DNA from: an uncultured Clostridia bacterium
GTDB lineage: Bacteria > Bacillota > Clostridia > Oscillospirales > Acutalibacteraceae
NCBI GenBank assembly: GCA_946646305.1
Contig: CAMPCO010000001.1
Coordinates: 1-39,394, forward strand
Direction: 5' to 3'
Length of the DNA: 39,394 nucleotides
The notes beneath the pieces were generated by a model, which worked only from the letters and a program-made list of their open reading frames with translations, was not told the DNA's origin and did no database searches. A program made the position numbers and the translations under genes. Within the stretch, counting starts at the first letter, position 1; each line of letters begins with the position of its first letter. Below are positions 103-21,851 of this stretch, in pieces.

Positions 103-795
103 ATGAAAATATACGGCTTTCAGAAAATGACCTTGCTTGATTTCCCCGGTCATGTTGCGGCAACGGTTTTCACCGGCGGATGCAATTTAAGGTGTCCTTT
201 TTGCCACAATGCCGCCCTTGTGACCGAAATCGATCCCGCGGCTATATATAATGAAGATGATATCATCGCCTTTTTGGCAAAGCGAACAAATCTGCTTGAT
301 GGCGTTGCCATAACCGGCGGCGAACCGCTTATGCAGGTTGATATATGCGGGTTTATTAAAAAGGTGAGGGGTTTGGGCTACAAGGTTAAGCTTGATACAA
401 ACGGCAGTTACCCCGATAAGCTGGAAGAGATAGTAAGCGAGCATTTGGTAGATTACATCGCAGTCGATATAAAAAACAGCCGCGAAAAGTATGCGCTTAC
501 CACAGGCGTTAAAGATTATGACCTGGCTTCCCTTGATAGATCGCTTGAAATTCTTAAAAACTGCGATATAGAGCATGAATTCCGCACTACTATTGTTAAA
601 GAACTTCACGAAACCGAGGACATAATAAAGATAGGCGAGTGGATGAAGGGCGAAAAGAACTACTTTTTGCAAAACTTTGTTGATAGCGGAAACCTCATAG
701 GAAGCGGTTTTTCCGCCGTTTCAAGGGAGAAGTTAGAGGAAATGCGCAAGGCAGCCACCCCTTATTTTGAAAATGTTGGGGTCAGAGGGATATAA
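103..795 (+). CDS. nrdG: Anaerobic ribonucleoside-triphosphate reductase activating protein (radical SAM)
   Basis: N-terminal GGCNLRCPFCHN radical-SAM CxxxCxxC cluster motif. GGGTG RBS 6-11 nt upstream. Lies beside nrdD and has NrdR boxes upstream. Confidence 0.9.
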   Translation: MKIYGFQKMTLLDFPGHVAATVFTGGCNLRCPFCHNAALVTEIDPAAIYNEDDIIAFLAKRTNLLDGVAITGGEPLMQVDICGFIKKVRGLGYKVKLDTNGSYPDKLEEIVSEHLVDYIAVDIKNSREKYALTTGVKDYDLASLDRSLEILKNCDIEHEFRTTIVKELHETEDIIKIGEWMKGEKNYFLQNFVDSGNLIGSGFSAVSREKLEEMRKAATPYFENVGVRGI

Positions 796-884: not shown

Positions 885-3260
885 ATGTATTCAGTAACCA
901 AACGAGACGGTCAGATAGTTGGCTTTGAACTGGGAAAAATAAAGGATGCTATTATTAAAGCATTTGAAGCATGCCAAAGGGAATATAACCCCGAGGTTAT
1001 AGATTTTCTTTGTTTAAAAGTTACAGCTGATTTTGAGCCGAAGATTGAAAACGGAACTATCACCGTTGAAAAAATTCAGGATAGTGTTGAATCGGTTTTA
1101 AGCAAAGCCGGTTATGATGATGTTTCTAAGGCTTATATCCTTTATCGCCGTCAGCACGAAAAAATTCGTAACATTTCAAATACAATGGTTGACTATAAGT
1201 CGATTGTTGATAACTATCTTAATGTTGCAGACTGGCGCGTTAAGGAAAACTCCACCGTTACCTATTCGGTAGGCGGTCTTATCCTTTCAAACTCGGGCGC
1301 TATCACTGCTAACTATTGGCTTTCCGAAATATATGATGATGAAATCGGCAATGCTCACCGCAATGCGGATATTCATATTCATGACCTTTCCATGCTTACA
1401 GGTTACTGCGCAGGTTGGTCACTCAAGCAGCTCATTCAGGAAGGTCTCGGCGGTGTTCCCGGCAAGATTACTTCTTCTCCCGCTTCCCACCTTTCAACCC
1501 TCTGCAACCAGATGGTTAACTTCCTCGGTATTATGCAGAACGAATGGGCGGGCGCGCAGGCGTTTTCATCCTTTGATACTTATCTTGCTCCCTTTGTTAA
1601 GGCGGACAACCTTACCTATAAGGAAGTTAAACAGTGCATTCAATCCTTCATTTACGGTGTAAATACTCCTTCTCGTTGGGGTACTCAATCACCCTTTACC
1701 AATGTAACACTTGACTGGACAGTTCCTAACGACCTTGCAGAACTCAACTGCATCGTAGGCGGCAAGGAAATGGACTTTAAGTATAAAGATTGTAAGAAAG
1801 AAATGGATATGGTAAACAAGGCGTTTATCGAAATCATGATCGAAGGCGATGCCAACGGTCGCGGCTTCCAGTATCCTATTCCGACCTATTCAATCACCCG
1901 TGATTTTGACTGGTCTGACACAGAAAACAACCGTTTGCTCTTTGAAATGACCGCAAAATACGGCACACCTTATTTCTCTAACTATATCAACAGCGATATG
2001 GAACCCAGCGATGTTCGCTCTATGTGCTGCAGACTTCGTCTTGACCTTCGTGAGCTTCGCAAAAAGTCGGGCGGTTTCTTCGGAAGCGGTGAGTCAACAG
2101 GTTCTGTCGGCGTTGTTACCATCAATATGCCGCGTATAGCCTATCTTTCCGAAACACCGGAAGAATTCTATAAGCGCCTTGACCATATGATGGATATTTC
2201 CGCCCGTTCACTTAAAGTTAAGAGAACAGTTATCACAAAGCTTCTTGAAAACGGTCTTTATCCTTATACCAAGCGCTATCTCGGCACATTTAACAACCAC
2301 TTCTCAACCATCGGTCTTGTTGGTATGAACGAAGCAGGTCTTAACGCCAAGTGGCTCAGGAAAGATATGACCCATAAGGAAACCCAGCAGTTTACCATTG
2401 ATGTATTAAATCATATGCGTGAGCGCCTTTCCGATTATCAGGAGCTTTACGGCGACCTTTACAACTTAGAGGCAACACCTGCCGAGTCAACCTCTTACCG
2501 TCTTGCTAAGCACGATAAGAAGCATTATCCCGATATCATCACCGCCAACGAAAACGGCACACCTTACTACACCAACTCTTCTCATCTGCCGGTTGGCTTT
2601 ACCGAGGATGTATTCACGGCTCTTGATATTCAGGATGAATTGCAGACCCTTTATACCTCAGGTACCGTTTTCCACGCATTCCTCGGTGAAAAACTTCCCG
2701 ATTGGTCTGCGGCGGCAAATCTTGTAAGAAAGATTGCCGAAAACTACAAACTGCCTTACTACACCATGTCTCCGACATATTCTGTATGTAAGAACCACGG
2801 CTATCTCACCGGCGAGCAGTTCTCCTGCCCGATATGCGGCGAAAAGACCGAGGTTTACAGCCGTATCACCGGTTACTATCGCCCGGTACAAAACTGGAAC
2901 GATGGTAAGGCTCAGGAATATCAAGACAGAAAGACCTATGATATTGCTCATTCTCATCTCACCCACGATGGCGTTATAGGTGCCGATGCCAAACCGCAAA
3001 CCGAAGCGACAGCCACCGTTAGTGCGGATAGCGAAAACGCAACCTATCTCTTTGCAACACCCACTTGCCCCAACTGCAAAATAGCGGCAAGCCTGCTTGA
3101 TAAACAGGGTGTGGCTTATGAAAAGGTTTTTGCAAACGAGCATGTCGATATGGTTGAAAAATTCGGTATTAAGCAAGCTCCCACCCTTGTAGAGGTTAGA
3201 AACGGCGAGTTTGAGAAATTTACCGGTGTATCTGATATAAAGAAACATCTTAACATTTGA
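885..3260 (+). CDS. nrdD: Anaerobic (class III) ribonucleoside-triphosphate reductase with a C-terminal thioredoxin/glutaredoxin-fold extension
   Basis: N-terminal ATP-cone-like region (VTKRDGQIVGFELGKI). Finger-loop RSMCCRLRLD. Zn-ribbon CKNH...CPIC. Glycyl-radical motif SRITGYYRPV (G663). About 125 additional in-frame codons end in a CPNC redoxin-like module. GGAGGA RBS. Confidence 0.95.
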   Translation: MYSVTKRDGQIVGFELGKIKDAIIKAFEACQREYNPEVIDFLCLKVTADFEPKIENGTITVEKIQDSVESVLSKAGYDDVSKAYILYRRQHEKIRNISNTMVDYKSIVDNYLNVADWRVKENSTVTYSVGGLILSNSGAITANYWLSEIYDDEIGNAHRNADIHIHDLSMLTGYCAGWSLKQLIQEGLGGVPGKITSSPASHLSTLCNQMVNFLGIMQNEWAGAQAFSSFDTYLAPFVKADNLTYKEVKQCIQSFIYGVNTPSRWGTQSPFTNVTLDWTVPNDLAELNCIVGGKEMDFKYKDCKKEMDMVNKAFIEIMIEGDANGRGFQYPIPTYSITRDFDWSDTENNRLLFEMTAKYGTPYFSNYINSDMEPSDVRSMCCRLRLDLRELRKKSGGFFGSGESTGSVGVVTINMPRIAYLSETPEEFYKRLDHMMDISARSLKVKRTVITKLLENGLYPYTKRYLGTFNNHFSTIGLVGMNEAGLNAKWLRKDMTHKETQQFTIDVLNHMRERLSDYQELYGDLYNLEATPAESTSYRLAKHDKKHYPDIITANENGTPYYTNSSHLPVGFTEDVFTALDIQDELQTLYTSGTVFHAFLGEKLPDWSAAANLVRKIAENYKLPYYTMSPTYSVCKNHGYLTGEQFSCPICGEKTEVYSRITGYYRPVQNWNDGKAQEYQDRKTYDIAHSHLTHDGVIGADAKPQTEATATVSADSENATYLFATPTCPNCKIAASLLDKQGVAYEKVFANEHVDMVEKFGIKQAPTLVEVRNGEFEKFTGVSDIKKHLNI

Positions 3261-3270
3261 GTTGATTTTT

Positions 3271-4179
3271 ATGTATGATATTATAATTATCGGCGGCGGC
3301 CCTGCGGGGCTCGTCGCCGCAGTATATGCGCGCCGCGCGCAAAAAAGCGTTCTCGTAATTGAAAAAGAGGTCTTCGGCGGACAGATAACCTTTTCGCCTA
3401 AGGTTGAAAACATACCCGGCTTTAAAGAACTTTCGGGCAATGAGTTTGCCGAAAATCTGGTTGACCAGGCAATAAACCTCGGCGCGGATTTTGAAATGTG
3501 CGAAGCGGTATCGGTAAAACAGGGGGATATAAAAACCGTTGTGACCGATTCGGGCGAGTATGAGGGCAAGGCCGTTATAATCGCAACCGGCGCCAAGCAC
3601 CGCAGATTAGGTCTTCCAAACGAGGATAAATTCATCGGCGAGGGAATATCCTTTTGCGCCGTTTGTGACGGTGCTTTTTATAAGGATAAAACCGTTGCCG
3701 TTATCGGCGGCGGCAATTCCGCTTTGCAGGAAGCCATTTTATTGTCCGAGCAGGCAAAAAAAGTTTATGTTATTCAAAACCTTGATTTTTTAACCGGCGA
3801 AGCCGCTTTGCAGGAGCAATTAAAGGCAAAGCCCAATGTTGAAATAATCTTGGGCTCCGTGCTTGATGCATATCTTGGCGAAGATGAAATCAAAGGCGTT
3901 CGCATAAAACGCGAAAAGGATGGGGAACTTTCCGAAATCGCGCTTGACGGCGTTTTCCTTGCGATTGGTCTTATCCCGCAGAACGAGGCTTTTGCCGATA
4001 TTATTCCTCTTGATGAAAGGGGATATGCAATAGCCGATGAAAACTGCCTTTTAGATGGCGGAATATTTGTTGCGGGCGATTGCAGAACCAAGAAAATCAG
4101 GCAGGTTACAACCGCCGCCGCGGATGGTGCGGTTGCCGCGCTTGCCGCCTGCGATTATATTGAAACCTTGACAAAATAA
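3271..4179 (+). CDS. trxB: Thioredoxin-disulfide reductase homologue (low-Mr TrxR family) with a non-canonical pyridine-nucleotide site
   Basis: GGGPAG FAD motif, redox-active CAVC, second GGGNSA dinucleotide motif and C-terminal GDC motif. ATG 3271 was chosen as the start because it gives MYDIIIIGGGPAG. The ORF track's TTG at 3262 is an alternative. No strong SD, so translation may be coupled to nrdD. Confidence 0.85.
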   Translation: MYDIIIIGGGPAGLVAAVYARRAQKSVLVIEKEVFGGQITFSPKVENIPGFKELSGNEFAENLVDQAINLGADFEMCEAVSVKQGDIKTVVTDSGEYEGKAVIIATGAKHRRLGLPNEDKFIGEGISFCAVCDGAFYKDKTVAVIGGGNSALQEAILLSEQAKKVYVIQNLDFLTGEAALQEQLKAKPNVEIILGSVLDAYLGEDEIKGVRIKREKDGELSEIALDGVFLAIGLIPQNEAFADIIPLDERGYAIADENCLLDGGIFVAGDCRTKKIRQVTTAAADGAVAALAACDYIETLTK

Positions 4180-4230
4180 CTCTATGCGAGTATAATCTTT
4201 ACACACAAGTCTTTTAATGGGAGTGTTGAT

Positions 4231-4365
4231 ATGAAAAAGATTATTGCGCTCGTAGTATCAGTTCTGCTTATGGCAACGGTTTTTTGCTCTTGCCGAACGG
4301 TAAATGATACAAAACCGAAAAATGAAACCACAAACCCTAACCCGATTGCAAGAGTGGTAAAATAA
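4231..4365 (+). CDS. Hypothetical 44-aa secreted peptide or lipoprotein (below the ORF-track cutoff)
   Basis: MKKIIALVVSVLLMATVFCSCRTVNDTKPKNETTNPNPIARVVK. Has a signal-peptide-like N-terminus with Cys residues after the hydrophobic core, a GGGAG RBS 7 nt upstream, a TATAAT-like element at 4191-4196, and a strong terminator immediately downstream. Confidence 0.45.
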   Translation: MKKIIALVVSVLLMATVFCSCRTVNDTKPKNETTNPNPIARVVK

Positions 4366-4370
4366 GTTTA

Positions 4371-4405
4371 ATCCCGTATCGCCTTGGGCGATACGGGATT
4401 TTGTT
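4371..4405. terminator. Rho-independent terminator shared by two convergent small ORFs
   Basis: Perfect 13-bp stem atcccgtatcgcc / ggcgatacgggat (4371-4383 / 4387-4399) followed by TTTGTT on the plus strand. An A/T-rich tract on the other side makes bidirectional use plausible. Confidence 0.7.
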
Positions 4406-18308: not shown

Positions 18309-21300
18309 ATGTCTAGAAAGTTCAAAACAATGGACGGTAACAACGCGGCTGCTCATGTAGCCTATGCGTTTACAGAGGTTGCGGGTATTTACCCGATTAC
18401 TCCGTCCAGTCCTATGGCTGACTATGTTGATCAGTGGTCTGCTCAGGGACTTAAAAATATTTTCGGCACCACGGTAAAAGTGGTTGAAATGCAGTCCGAA
18501 GCCGGTGCGGCCGGTACAGTTCACGGCTCTTTGGCGGCCGGTGCTCTTACCACCACCTTCACGGCATCTCAGGGTCTTCTTCTTATGATCCCGAATATGT
18601 ATAAGATTGCCGGTGAACTTTTGCCTGCGGTATTCCATGTTTCAGCTCGTTGCGTAGCAAGCCATGCGCTTAACATTTTCGGCGATCATTCCGATGTTTA
18701 TGCTTGCCGTCAAACCGGTTTTGCAATGCTTGCCGAAACCAACACTCAGGAAGTTATGGACCTCGGCGCAGTTGCTCACCTTTCTGCAATTAAAGGCCGT
18801 GTTCCTTTCATCAATTTCTTTGATGGTTTCCGTACCTCTCATGAAATTCAGAAAATCCGCGTTTGGGATTATGAAGATCTTAAAGAGATGTGCGATATGG
18901 ATGCCGTTGCCGCATTCCGCAAGCGCGCGCTTAATCCTGAGCGCCCCGTAATGCGCGGCAGCCATGAAAATGACGATATCTTCTTCCAGCACAGAGAAGC
19001 CTGCAACAAATACTATACCGCTTTGCCGGCTATCGTTGAAGAATATATGGACAAAGTTAACAAGAAACTCGGCACTGACTATAAACTCTTCAACTACTAT
19101 GGCGCTCCCGATGCTGAAAAGGTTATTATCGCTATGGGCTCTATCTGCGATGTTGCAGAAGAGGTTATCGATTACCTTACCGCTCAGGGTGAAAAGGTTG
19201 GTCTTGTAAAGGTTCGCCTTTATCGTCCGTTCAGCGCAGAAAAGCTGGTTGAAGCAATTCCTGCAACCACCAAGAAGATTGCCGTTCTTGACCGCACCAA
19301 GGAACCCGGTGCTCTCGGCGAACCGCTTTATATGGATGTTATCAGCGCCCTGGCTCAAAAAGGCAGACATATTGATACCGTTATCGGCGGTAGATATGGT
19401 CTTGGTTCTAAGGATACTCCTCCTTCAAGTATATTTGCTGTATATAAAGAACTTGGCAAAGATGAGCCCAAGGCTCAGTTCACTCTCGGTATCAACGATG
19501 ATGTTACTCATCTTTCACTTCCCGAAGAGCATGCGCCCAACACCGCGGCAGAAGGCACTATCGAATGCAAATTCTGGGGTCTCGGCGGCGATGGTACCGT
19601 TGGTGCAAACAAAAACTCCATCAAAATCATCGGTGATCATACCGATAAATATGTTCAGGCTTACTTCCAGTATGACTCTAAGAAGACCGGCGGTATAACA
19701 ATTTCTCACCTTCGTTTTGGTGATAAGCCGATCAAGAGTCCTTACTACATAAACAAAGCCGACTTCGTTGCCTGCCATAACCCCTCTTATGTAATCAAGG
19801 GTTATAAGATGGTTAACGATGTTAAGCCGGGCGGCGTGTTCCTTATCAACTGCCAGTGGGATAAGGATGAACTCAGCGCTCATATGCCTGCCGAGGCAAA
19901 ACGCTATATCGCTAAGAATAACATTCAGCTTTATACCGTTAATGCTATCGACCTTGCGGCTCAAATCGGTATGGGTAAGCGCACCAACACCATTTTGCAG
20001 TCTGCTTTCTTTGCTCTTTCTAAGGTATTGCCGGTTGACGATGCTATTAAATATATGAAAGAAAAAGCAGAAATCTCTTACTCCAAGAAGGGTGCCGATG
20101 TTGTTCAGATGAACTTCAAGGCTATCGATATAGGCGCTACCGCTTTTGTTAAGGTTGATGTTCCCGCCGATTGGGCAGATGCAGCCGATGAAAAGAAGAC
20201 AGGCGCTTTGGAAGACAGCACCAAGCTTGAAGTTATGGTTGATAACATCATGAAGCCGGTTGGCCTTATGAATGGTTACGAAGTTCCGGTTTCCGCTTTC
20301 GTTCCCCATGCAGACGGTACCTTTGAACAGGGCGCTTCCGCATTTGAAAAACGCGGTGTTGCCGTTATGGTTCCCGCTTGGAACAACGAAACCTGCGTTG
20401 CTTGTAACAAGTGCGCATTCGTTTGCCCGCATGCTACAATTCGCCCCTTTGCTTTAAGCGAAGAAGAAGCAAAGAATGCTCCCGAAAACATCCGCTATGC
20501 CGACAAGGCAAAGGCTGTTCAGAACGCGGGCTACAAATTTGCTCTTACCGTTTCTCCGCTTGATTGTATGGGATGCGGCGTTTGCGTTGGCGTTTGCCCG
20601 ACCAAGTCGCTCGAAATGGTAGCACAGAGCAGCCAGCTTGATGAGCAGAAGGTATTTGACTACTGCGTAGCAAATGTTACCGAAAAAGCAGGCGTGGCTT
20701 CTGATGCAAATGTTATTTCCTCTCAATATAAAAAGCCGTTGCTTGAATTCTCAGGCTCTTGCGCAGGATGTGCTGAAACATCCTATGCTCGCCTTATAAC
20801 TCAGCTCTTCGGCGACAGAATGTATATTTCCAATGCAACAGGTTGCTCATCCATTTGGGGTGGCCCTGCCGCAACTTCACCTTACACTACCGACTTTAAC
20901 GGTCACGGTCCTGCCTGGGCAAACTCTTTGTTTGAAGATAACGCAGAACACGGCTACGGTATGTATTTAGGTCAGCAGGCTATTCGCCGCCGCCTTATTG
21001 ATGAGGTTAAGGAAATAGCTGAAAACAGCAAAAACGATGCAGTTAAATCTGCCGCAGGCGAGTATCTTGATACTGTTAATGACGGCGCTAAGAACTCCGC
21101 TGCTGCAAAGGCTTTGGTAGAAGCAATCAAGGCCGCAGGTGCTGACTGCGATAACTGCCGCGATGTTGTTGCCAATGCTGAATATCTTTCCAAGAAATCT
21201 GTATGGATCTTCGGCGGTGACGGTTGGGCTTATGATATAGGCTTCGGCGGTGTTGACCATGTTCTTGCTTCCGGCGACAATGTAAACATTATGGTATTCG

Positions 21301-21851
21301 ATACCGAGGTTTACTCAAATACCGGCGGTCAGGCTTCCAAGGCTTCCAATATCGGTCAGGTTGCTCAGTTCGCAGCTGCCGGTAAAGCGATTGCCAAGAA
21401 GAGCCTTGCAGAAATCGCTATGAGCTATGGTTATATCTATGTTGCTCAGATAGCTATGGGCGCTGATCAGAACCAGACCCTTAAAGCAATCAAAGAAGCA
21501 GAAGCTTATGATGGTCCTTCGCTTATCATCGGTTATGCTCCTTGCGAAATGCATTCAATCAAGGGCGGTATGGTTAACTGCCAGGCAGAAATGAAGAAGG
21601 CTGTTGACAGTGGATATTGGGATCTCTTCCGTTACAACCCTGCACTTAAAGCAGAAGGCAAGAACCCGTTCTCCCTCGATAGCAAGCCCGCAACTGCTGA
21701 TTATAAGGAATTCATAATGAATGAAGCCCGTTATAACAGACTTACTCGTGAATTCCCCGAAAGGGCAGAGGTTCTCTTTGACAAGGCGGCAGAAACCGCT
21801 AAGGCAAGACGCGCTCACCTTGAAAAACTTGTTGAGCTTTACGGCAAGTAA
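18309..21851 (+). CDS. nifJ: Pyruvate:ferredoxin (flavodoxin) oxidoreductase, single-polypeptide PFOR
   Basis: About 1180 aa. MSRKFKTMDGNNAAAHVAYAF N-terminus. Two ferredoxin-type clusters CVACNKCAFVCP and CMGCGVCVGVCP. TPP motif GGDGWAYDIGFGG. Start set at ATG 18309 (AGGAGG RBS), not the in-frame upstream start at 18195. Confidence 0.95.
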   Translation: MSRKFKTMDGNNAAAHVAYAFTEVAGIYPITPSSPMADYVDQWSAQGLKNIFGTTVKVVEMQSEAGAAGTVHGSLAAGALTTTFTASQGLLLMIPNMYKIAGELLPAVFHVSARCVASHALNIFGDHSDVYACRQTGFAMLAETNTQEVMDLGAVAHLSAIKGRVPFINFFDGFRTSHEIQKIRVWDYEDLKEMCDMDAVAAFRKRALNPERPVMRGSHENDDIFFQHREACNKYYTALPAIVEEYMDKVNKKLGTDYKLFNYYGAPDAEKVIIAMGSICDVAEEVIDYLTAQGEKVGLVKVRLYRPFSAEKLVEAIPATTKKIAVLDRTKEPGALGEPLYMDVISALAQKGRHIDTVIGGRYGLGSKDTPPSSIFAVYKELGKDEPKAQFTLGINDDVTHLSLPEEHAPNTAAEGTIECKFWGLGGDGTVGANKNSIKIIGDHTDKYVQAYFQYDSKKTGGITISHLRFGDKPIKSPYYINKADFVACHNPSYVIKGYKMVNDVKPGGVFLINCQWDKDELSAHMPAEAKRYIAKNNIQLYTVNAIDLAAQIGMGKRTNTILQSAFFALSKVLPVDDAIKYMKEKAEISYSKKGADVVQMNFKAIDIGATAFVKVDVPADWADAADEKKTGALEDSTKLEVMVDNIMKPVGLMNGYEVPVSAFVPHADGTFEQGASAFEKRGVAVMVPAWNNETCVACNKCAFVCPHATIRPFALSEEEAKNAPENIRYADKAKAVQNAGYKFALTVSPLDCMGCGVCVGVCPTKSLEMVAQSSQLDEQKVFDYCVANVTEKAGVASDANVISSQYKKPLLEFSGSCAGCAETSYARLITQLFGDRMYISNATGCSSIWGGPAATSPYTTDFNGHGPAWANSLFEDNAEHGYGMYLGQQAIRRRLIDEVKEIAENSKNDAVKSAAGEYLDTVNDGAKNSAAAKALVEAIKAAGADCDNCRDVVANAEYLSKKSVWIFGGDGWAYDIGFGGVDHVLASGDNVNIMVFDTEVYSNTGGQASKASNIGQVAQFAAAGKAIAKKSLAEIAMSYGYIYVAQIAMGADQNQTLKAIKEAEAYDGPSLIIGYAPCEMHSIKGGMVNCQAEMKKAVDSGYWDLFRYNPALKAEGKNPFSLDSKPATADYKEFIMNEARYNRLTREFPERAEVLFDKAAETAKARRAHLEKLVELYGK

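Follow-up and report, generated by a model that had tools for sequence, protein, structure and literature searches.

A thioredoxin-reductase-type flavoenzyme with a rebuilt NADPH 2′-phosphate site in a class III ribonucleotide reductase operon of Clostridia, and its probable preference for NADH

Which donor feeds a flavoenzyme that is built like a low-Mr thioredoxin reductase (TrxR) but has lost the residues that hold the 2′-phosphate of NADPH? The question is raised by trxR, the gene that follows nrdD, encoding a class III ribonucleotide reductase (RNR), in a 39,394-nt stretch of DNA from an uncultured Clostridia bacterium (hereafter the window; the host genome comprises 1.17 Mb in 97 contigs and is 93% complete). 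A first-pass annotation of this stretch proposed that the enzyme may be NADH- or ferredoxin-linked, and the NADH half of that proposal is the better supported. With a probability of roughly 60%, the sequence data point to an NADH-preferring TrxR that would serve both the redoxin domain of NrdD and the single thioredoxin encoded in the genome. The best explanation for its features is that an enzyme of the low-Mr TrxB/NTR lineage was recruited into a class III RNR operon and had its pocket retuned from NADPH to NADH.

The case starts at the pyridine-nucleotide pocket. When the window protein was aligned by MAFFT with the TrxB and AhpF of E. coli K-12, taken from the annotated genome, its segment VYVIQNLDFLTGE fell opposite VHLIHRRDGFRAE of TrxB and VTLLEFAPEMKAD of AhpF, and the same register was recovered against 4ZN0, the NADPH-dependent TrxR of M. 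mazei, by HMMER search of the PDB. In this register QNLDFLT stands opposite E. coli HRRDGFR, and His175, Arg176, Arg177 and Arg181 are all replaced. The first-pass annotation had reported the three arginines of the 2′-phosphate site as absent and had placed IQNLDFLTGE at nt 3772–3801; both statements are borne out, the decapeptide covering residues 168–177 at exactly those positions, and the histidine of the site is gone too. With the three Arg and the His missing, it is improbable that this is an ordinary NADPH-TrxR. Nor is the replacement a matter of chance, given that the pattern Q-N/D-L/M-x-x-L/F-T is invariant in all 35 clade relatives sampled from the same order (hereafter the QN/QD proteins). 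The other motifs are intact, as had also been noted, and the translation of the open reading frame (ORF) and the alignment agree on them: GGGPAG is the FAD-binding GxGxxG motif (residues 8–13, nt 3292–3309), CAVC is the CxxC of the nucleotide-binding domain (residues 129–132, aligned with E. coli CATC) and GGGNSA is the GxGxxA pyrophosphate motif (residues 146–151).

The gene runs on the plus strand from the ATG at 3271 to the TAA at 4177–4179, encodes 302 residues and begins 10 nt downstream of the nrdD stop codon, in the order nrdG, nrdD, trxR. A terminator scan between nrdD and trxR gave no good candidate; the first terminator after trxR is predicted to end the nrdD-trxR transcript together with a small downstream ORF. 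Separate promoter-like sites lie at 29–57, before nrdG, and at 822–850, before nrdD. The features of the locus are as follows.

103–795, plus strand: nrdG, the radical-SAM activase of the class III RNR (TIGR02495, NrdG2, 211.5 bits against a cut-off of 131).
885–3260, plus strand: nrdD, 791 residues, with ATP-cone, catalytic core, glycyl-radical motif, linker and fused redoxin domain (Pfam).
2955–3257, plus strand: C-terminal linker and thioredoxin-fold domain of NrdD, with TPTC728PNC731 at nt 3057–3077 and the APT cis-Pro region at nt 3177–3197.
3271–4179, plus strand: trxR, a low-Mr thioredoxin-reductase-type flavoprotein (TIGR01292, PDB, AlphaFold2 model, Foldseek).
3655–3666, plus strand: redox-active C129-A-V-C132 (alignment).
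3706–3723, plus strand: GGGNSA dinucleotide (pyrophosphate) motif, intact (alignment).
3775–3795, plus strand: Q169-N170-L171-D-F-L-T175 at the NADPH 2′-phosphate site, in place of H-R-R-x-x-x-R.
4370–4400, both strands: predicted bidirectional intrinsic terminator, with a 14-bp stem, 8 GC pairs and T-runs on both strands.

This gene order is widely conserved. A protein search of 151 genomes of the same order gave 69 matches that were examined with their flanks, and the 29 best of them (54–72% identity, from many families) all lie directly downstream of an NrdD gene with a C-terminal redoxin domain. Altogether, 48 TrxR genes are found no more than 1.3 kb from an NrdD gene of this fused kind; 44 of these follow it immediately, at most 301 nt away. 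The linked enzymes, which span many families, are 45–72% identical to the window protein. The Q-N/D-L/M-x-x-L/F-T pattern is found in 35 of the 48, the other 13 having an ordinary HRRxxxR. Outside the linked set, the TrxRs of the order carry HRRxxxR, or in three instances something close to it, and their active site is mostly CATC; the linked enzymes have CAVC, with CAIC in two members. Moreover, the Arg/Lys of the GRG site that docks thioredoxin is lost in 39 of 47 linked relatives, and A-F or A-Y stands at the E. coli F-F pair; both sites are markers of partner specificity (PMC5627308). The TrxR would be dedicated to the redoxin-bearing class III RNR, or at least co-expressed with it.

The linked enzymes are also related by descent. 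In a maximum-likelihood tree of the order (FastTree, motif columns masked, SH-like supports), the nrd-linked TrxRs form one clade, accounting for 48 of its 49 tips (SH-like 0.885), while the 49th, L137, follows nrdG. All 35 QN/QD proteins fall in one subclade and the 13 linked HRR-type enzymes branch at the base. Because the QN/QD proteins group together above basal HRR-type linked enzymes, one switch from HRR to QN/QD inside the RNR-linked lineage looks like the most parsimonious reading of the tree, on a weak node. The outgroup to the nrd-linked clade is a third TrxR class of the order, of about 285 residues (GAGDYA and TDGxPLT motifs; L153–L155 in genomes G145, G002 and G010), which matches the DvTRi structure 5NII with an E-value of 3e-67. 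The possibility that this class represents FFTRs was rejected, as the PDB search shows it to be DvTRi-like.

A few individual loci deserve mention beside the tree. L137 (G086:C74) is an HRR-type TrxR of the nrd-linked clade encoded immediately behind nrdG, and the flanking 3 kb contain no nrdD. Genome G020 carries two nrdD-redoxin-trxR operons, L116 and L123 (contigs C48 and C53), one with an HRR-type and the other with a QDL-type enzyme; since this metagenome-assembled genome is 77% complete with 2% contamination, the pair could be a true duplication or the product of a mixed bin. Four genomes pair a short, low-scoring match to the 285-residue class with a QNL enzyme, the match having been inspected in G010 only. 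Finally, the closest 50%-cluster representative, P0121 (58% identical to the query), has HRRDTFR and an odd NGGGNSA and nests among QNL enzymes in the broad tree described below; a reversal, a basal position among the linked enzymes or an artefact of the tree could each explain this.

How narrow the change was is seen when the 35 QN/QD proteins are compared with the 14 basal HRR members of the clade (the 13 linked ones and L137) and with 18 other HRR enzymes. Only seven of 302 positions discriminate the QN/QD proteins from both HRR groups, and four of the seven are the phosphate ligands: His is replaced by Gln in 35 of 35, the first Arg by Asn in 32 and Asp in 3, the second by Leu in 34 and Met in 1, and the third by Thr in 35 of 35. 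The remaining three comprise one conservative D-to-E exchange and two minor differences. No acidic residue is gained, and GGGN(S/T)A is kept in all 35. The Asp that three members have at the first Arg position would repel a 2′-phosphate. As for basic residues, the sole gain of the QN/QD clade is at position 179, four residues past the Thr, where 77% of the members have Lys or Arg; a compensating arginine nearby was rejected for the window protein, which has Ala179 there. Such a pattern is the one expected from a change of coenzyme specificity, and not from the loss of the nucleotide site.

By sequence and predicted fold the protein groups with the low-Mr TrxRs. Pfam calls it a pyridine-nucleotide-disulphide oxidoreductase, its score with the thioredoxin-disulfide reductase equivalog TIGR01292 (312.6 bits) lies under the curated cut-off of 343.45, and close relatives are labelled by NCBI just as ‘FAD-dependent oxidoreductase’. 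The best PDB matches by HMMER are the NTR of M. mazei, 4ZN0 (E-value 6e-72), and 7JYP (1e-68), together with the TrxRs of S. pyogenes, D. radiodurans, B. cereus and S. aureus (1e-67 to 1e-63). An AlphaFold2 model computed from a 74-sequence alignment (pLDDT 96.8, pTM 0.89) predicts the two-domain TrxR fold, and all the Foldseek matches listed for it are TrxR or AhpF, with TM scores of 0.86–0.87 to the nearest conformers, among them an FR-state structure from L. lactis. The top Foldseek match is again 7JYP, by its title the TrxR of Thermosipho africanus, for which a literature search found no account of the structure, only chance strings.

This match leads to a parallel in another phylum. The site of 7JYP reads VQNLPYLTA, and when Thermotogae loci were fetched with a 79-residue stretch of the protein, the same was found in the TrxRs of Fervidobacterium and Thermosipho, with IQLLETLTA in a Thermotoga metagenome-assembled genome. 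Among 14 full-length TrxRs from 16 Thermotogaceae genomes, ten have QLLETLTA (all of the Thermotoga type) and four HRRDKLRA; this family (L156–L169, genomes G151–G169) repeats the natural HRR-to-Q.L..T split seen in the Clostridia. In a broad FastTree phylogeny with masked motif columns and 130 database representatives, whose deep nodes are weak, the enzymes of Thermotogae fall at another place among the HRR-type TrxRs. Common descent with the Thermotogae QNL enzymes was rejected on this tree and, as their clade is not sister to that of the window, Q-x-L..T would have arisen at least twice, by convergence. According to the passage of PMC5627308 that cites Yang and Ma 2010, the T. maritima TrxR favours NADH above NADPH and has a glutaredoxin-like protein as its partner; likewise, where PMC6262447 cites Susanti 2017, the TrxR of T. 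acidophilum, also without HRRxxxR, is described as NADH-dependent. Taken together, the narrow change and the convergence with NADH-preferring enzymes of Thermotogae make NADH preference the most likely outcome for the window protein.

What the enzyme would reduce is suggested by its neighbour. NrdD matches the Pfam families NRDD (7e-191), ATP-cone (9e-22) and, at residues 722–754, Glutaredoxin (7e-5), and the weak glutaredoxin/NrdH match extends over residues 722–770 when Pfam and NCBIfam are considered together. Its residues include GYC at 173–175, a finger loop M-C381-C382-R, Glu529 within NLEATP and the glycyl-radical motif RITGYYRP at 660–667; in alignment with T. maritima NrdD (4COI), GYC falls on Y124-C125, with C175 on C125, and the NLE of Glu529 on E495. 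The NrdD2 type is defined by an extra finger-loop Cys and an active-site Glu (PMC4493059; definitions also in PMC9669993). With MCCR, a beta-A Cys preceded by Tyr, and Glu529, the window NrdD is by its residues of this thiol-dependent type. In pairwise comparison its fused domain, which carries TPTCPNC, matches best the TPTCPYC unit at the C-terminus of a two-domain glutaredoxin-like protein from Thermotogae (1e-9, 37% over 57 residues).

The redoxin domain is proposed as the direct substrate of the reductase. Electrons would pass from NADH to FAD, and from FAD to the C129/C132 dithiol, which would in turn reduce the CPNC pair of the redoxin domain tethered at the C-terminus of NrdD. This domain would then reduce the active-site disulfide formed between the beta-A cysteine C175 and a finger-loop cysteine (C381/C382), and ribonucleotide reduction would follow with Glu529 as proton donor. 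The first-pass annotation had imagined a longer chain, from PFOR through ferredoxin and the flavoenzyme to the redoxin domain and the RNR. Its distal half, from flavoenzyme to redoxin to NrdD, is strongly supported by the conserved gene order; the proximal half is not, given that the PFOR gene, correctly placed at 18309–21851 and bona fide, is 14 kb from the nrd operon, without linkage, with unrelated genes and operons on both strands between them.

The genome as a whole may give the enzyme further work to do. A canonical HRRxxxR trxB elsewhere, which the first-pass annotation had suggested looking for, was not found with either the protein query or the TIGR01292 profile in this 1.17-Mb, 93%-complete assembly. 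The only other match of both searches is weak and belongs to a flavoprotein on contig C5, rejected as an alternative TrxR because its gene is part of a 2-oxoacid dehydrogenase operon, where it encodes the E3 component, dihydrolipoyl dehydrogenase. The genome encodes one canonical WCGPC thioredoxin (C5:1432–1719) and, as neither a class I nor a class II RNR turned up, NrdD is the sole RNR detected. With one TrxR homologue found and one canonical thioredoxin, the enzyme is probably also the housekeeping TrxR, reducing the free thioredoxin. The window genome is one of the 22 among 35 QN/QD genomes where the linked enzyme is the sole TrxR-family gene at an E-value of 1e-30 or below; the second gene of the other 13 is mostly an unlinked HRR enzyme, TRi-like in four and a second nrd-linked copy in one.

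The alternative that survives best, although it is an unlikely one, is a pyridine-nucleotide-independent enzyme of the FFTR, DTR or DvTRi kind, whose donor would be ferredoxin, flavodoxin or another carrier, as in a chain from PFOR to ferredoxin, enzyme and NrdD. Such a reading would account for the complete loss of HRRxxxR in a fermentative anaerobe that encodes PFOR within the same window; surveys class clostridial TrxBs without the motifs as probable FFTRs (PMC10880999), and DvTRi retains G-x-G-x-x-A without using NAD(P)H (PMC5627308). Yet FFTRs lack both GxGxxA and HRRxxxR (PMC10880999), whereas here only the second is lost, GGGNSA being intact in the window protein and invariant in the clade, and the four phosphate ligands are the only changes in the nucleotide domain. 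Similarity is also much lower than to the NTR 4ZN0: the FFTR structures 6GNA, 6GND and 6GNC match with E-values of 1e-33 to 4e-31 and rank under about 44 NTR/AhpF sequences, the DTR 5J60 gives 5e-43 and the DvTRi 5NII only 6.5e-24. Judged by PDB search, no clustering with the characterised clostridial FFTRs was observed, and the window protein nests among HRR-bearing TrxRs. TRi enzymes carry a TQ/NGK motif in place of HRRD (PMC5627308), in contrast to the QNLD found here, and those of the order form the separate, shorter class of about 285 residues. There is, moreover, no C-terminal tail of the DTR/DDOR kind on the window TrxR and no ferredoxin or flavodoxin gene in the nrd operon. Weak FFTR similarity, an intact nucleotide motif and an operon free of such carriers leave the ferredoxin chain, the second option of the first-pass annotation, as a minority possibility.

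Slightly less probable still is that NADPH remains the main donor, or that both nucleotides serve equally, the motif change weakening binding without physiological meaning. The protein lies inside the NTR radiation and sister operons have HRR-type enzymes; a NAD kinase is encoded in the genome, so NADPH would be available; and Lys or Arg is frequent four residues past the Thr in the clade (the 77% mentioned above). The first-pass annotation held that nesting among canonical NADPH-TrxRs, combined with a compensating Arg, would speak for this reading; the nesting within the TrxB/NTR family was indeed observed, but the Arg is absent from the window protein, which has Ala at the very position where others gain a basic residue. 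In addition, four charged or polar ligands were replaced together by residues that are strictly conserved in 35 of 35 proteins, three members have Asp at the first Arg position, and the same replacement occurred independently in Thermotogae, for which the cited passage of PMC5627308 reports NADH preference.

That the gene order is incidental, with a housekeeping TrxR acting only on the free WCGPC thioredoxin while the NrdD-fused domain is reduced otherwise or is non-catalytic, is very improbable, for even if this is the only TrxR of the genome and a canonical thioredoxin is encoded elsewhere, 48 TrxRs of one clade, from many families and at 45–72% identity, are linked to the NrdD-redoxin fusion, the docking sites are altered in a manner tied to partner specificity (PMC5627308), and the second TrxR-family gene of 13 QN/QD genomes indicates a division of labour.

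Several observations weigh against an NADH-preferring enzyme at the head of this pathway. The end of strand beta-2 has no acidic residue (Q-N-L), unlike AhpF with its Glu, so that the pocket would be neutral, without the classical features of NADH specificity, and both NADH and NADPH may be used. Yang and Ma are said to have found in 2010 that the T. maritima TrxR keeps some NADPH activity. T. maritima itself was not picked out by name among the Thermotoga-type genomes compared. The node uniting the QN/QD proteins has an SH-like value of 0.18 and all trees are FastTree ones. Both the NADH preference and every electron-transfer step are what we infer, the pocket having been judged by its sequence. 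In the alignment, too, DvTRi keeps G-x-G-x-x-A and yet it is not reduced by NAD(P)H (PMC5627308), which means that an intact motif is no proof of pyridine-nucleotide use. Finally, the genome encodes a PFL-like glycyl-radical enzyme and NrdD keeps the finger-loop Met of formate-dependent chemistry, so formate is possible as an alternative reductant of NrdD.

If NADH is the donor, the DNA-precursor synthesis and the thiol-disulfide homeostasis of many abundant uncultured gut Clostridia would be tied to the NADH/NAD+ pool, with no dependence of these pathways on NADPH, formate or ferredoxin. A bolder version, which we hold tentatively and at a little short of even odds, is that a radiation of gut Clostridia rewired deoxynucleotide synthesis to a self-contained, NADH-driven module composed of an RNR, a tethered redoxin and a private TrxR flipped by four substitutions; that the independent flip in Thermotogae marks this as a natural minimal recipe for turning NADPH into NADH use; and that the module replaces the housekeeping NADPH-thioredoxin system in most of the genomes. 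In any case, sister operons whose enzymes are set apart essentially by four residues (HRR..R in one, QNL..T in the other) amount to a clean natural experiment on coenzyme specificity in a flavoenzyme family that is well understood. There is also a consequence for annotation: published surveys decide between NTR and ‘non-NTR, probably FFTR’ for a TrxB according to whether it has the two motifs (PMC10880999), and this rule would mislabel a large clade as ferredoxin-dependent. Moreover, the TrxR and the glutaredoxin-like protein of T. maritima are, as a pair, a candidate for the protein reductant that its NrdD is missing (PMC4493059).

Two observations concern neighbouring DNA. Within positions 4168–4400 of the window, a perfect sigma-70 consensus (TTGACA-17-TATAAT) overlaps the final codons of trxR, and downstream of it a 44-residue lipoprotein-like ORF (4231–4365; MKKIIALVVSVLLMATVFCSC...) ends at the terminator of 4370–4400. 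On contig C5 (1369–7961), the WCGPC thioredoxin gene is followed closely by a DeoR-type regulator and the 2-oxoacid dehydrogenase operon (E2, E3 and a fused 824-residue E1).

A last question is how this system relates to those already known. For the clade and its operon, the literature library searched held no published account beyond one line on a grx::nrdD fusion in a single Lachnospiraceae genome (PMC6187632). The canonical enzymes (E. coli TrxB, M. mazei 4ZN0 and S. aureus 4GCM) share with the window protein the fold, the FAD motif, the CxxC of the nucleotide domain, GxGxxA and the length, and the window protein, 39% identical to E. coli TrxB, nests phylogenetically inside the canonical low-Mr TrxR family. 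It departs from canonical TrxB in lacking H175, R176, R177 and R181 (E. coli numbering), in having GEG for GRG and A-F for F-F at the thioredoxin-docking residues, in being encoded in an RNR operon and in scoring below the TIGR01292 cut-off. The FFTR (6GNA) and DvTRi (5NII) are likewise members of the TrxR superfamily from anaerobes without HRRxxxR, but both are shorter, of about 285–290 residues, and far less similar to the window protein.

Among clostridial systems, the Cp34/Cp9/Cp20 peroxiredoxin reductase system of C. pasteurianum is, to judge by the title of a paper, NADH-dependent, and it had been named in the first-pass annotation as an example of NADH use. The related operon of C. akagii (L105) does pair a small glutaredoxin-like CxxC protein with a flavoprotein that is TrxR-like and has no HRRxxxR. 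However, its enzyme has an HQFDTLQ motif and a CELC active site and belongs to a separate clade, and its operon partner is a peroxiredoxin instead of an RNR.

The closest parallel is the TrxR system of Thermotogae, which shares Q-(N/L)-L-x-x-L-T opposite HRRxxxR with an intact GGGxxA, a glutaredoxin-like redoxin with TPTCPxC as partner, and the fact of being the only TrxR of the genome. It differs in its own 18-residue N-terminal extension, in CA(A/T)C instead of CAVC and in the retention of GRG. Its partner is a free two-domain glutaredoxin-like protein of 216–230 residues encoded upstream of the TrxR gene, while Fervidobacterium and Thermosipho also encode an 80-residue TPTCP(W/Y)C glutaredoxin after it, and the genes are not next to nrdD.

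With regard to the RNR, Wei et al. reportedly described a thioredoxin-dependent class III enzyme from Neisseria bacilliformis in 2014 and a ferredoxin:disulfide reductase/NrdH system for the NrdD of Methanosarcina barkeri in 2015. The window NrdD shares with these systems a double-Cys finger loop, a beta-A Cys and an active-site Glu, with a thiol-redoxin chain that replaces or supplements formate (PMC4493059, PMC9669993), and the M. barkeri system is further alike in that redoxin and reductase are encoded with nrdD. In contrast to both, the redoxin of the window is fused to NrdD, and its reductase is neither a general NADPH-TrxB nor an iron-sulfur ferredoxin:disulfide reductase, but a TrxB-family flavoprotein with a rebuilt coenzyme site.

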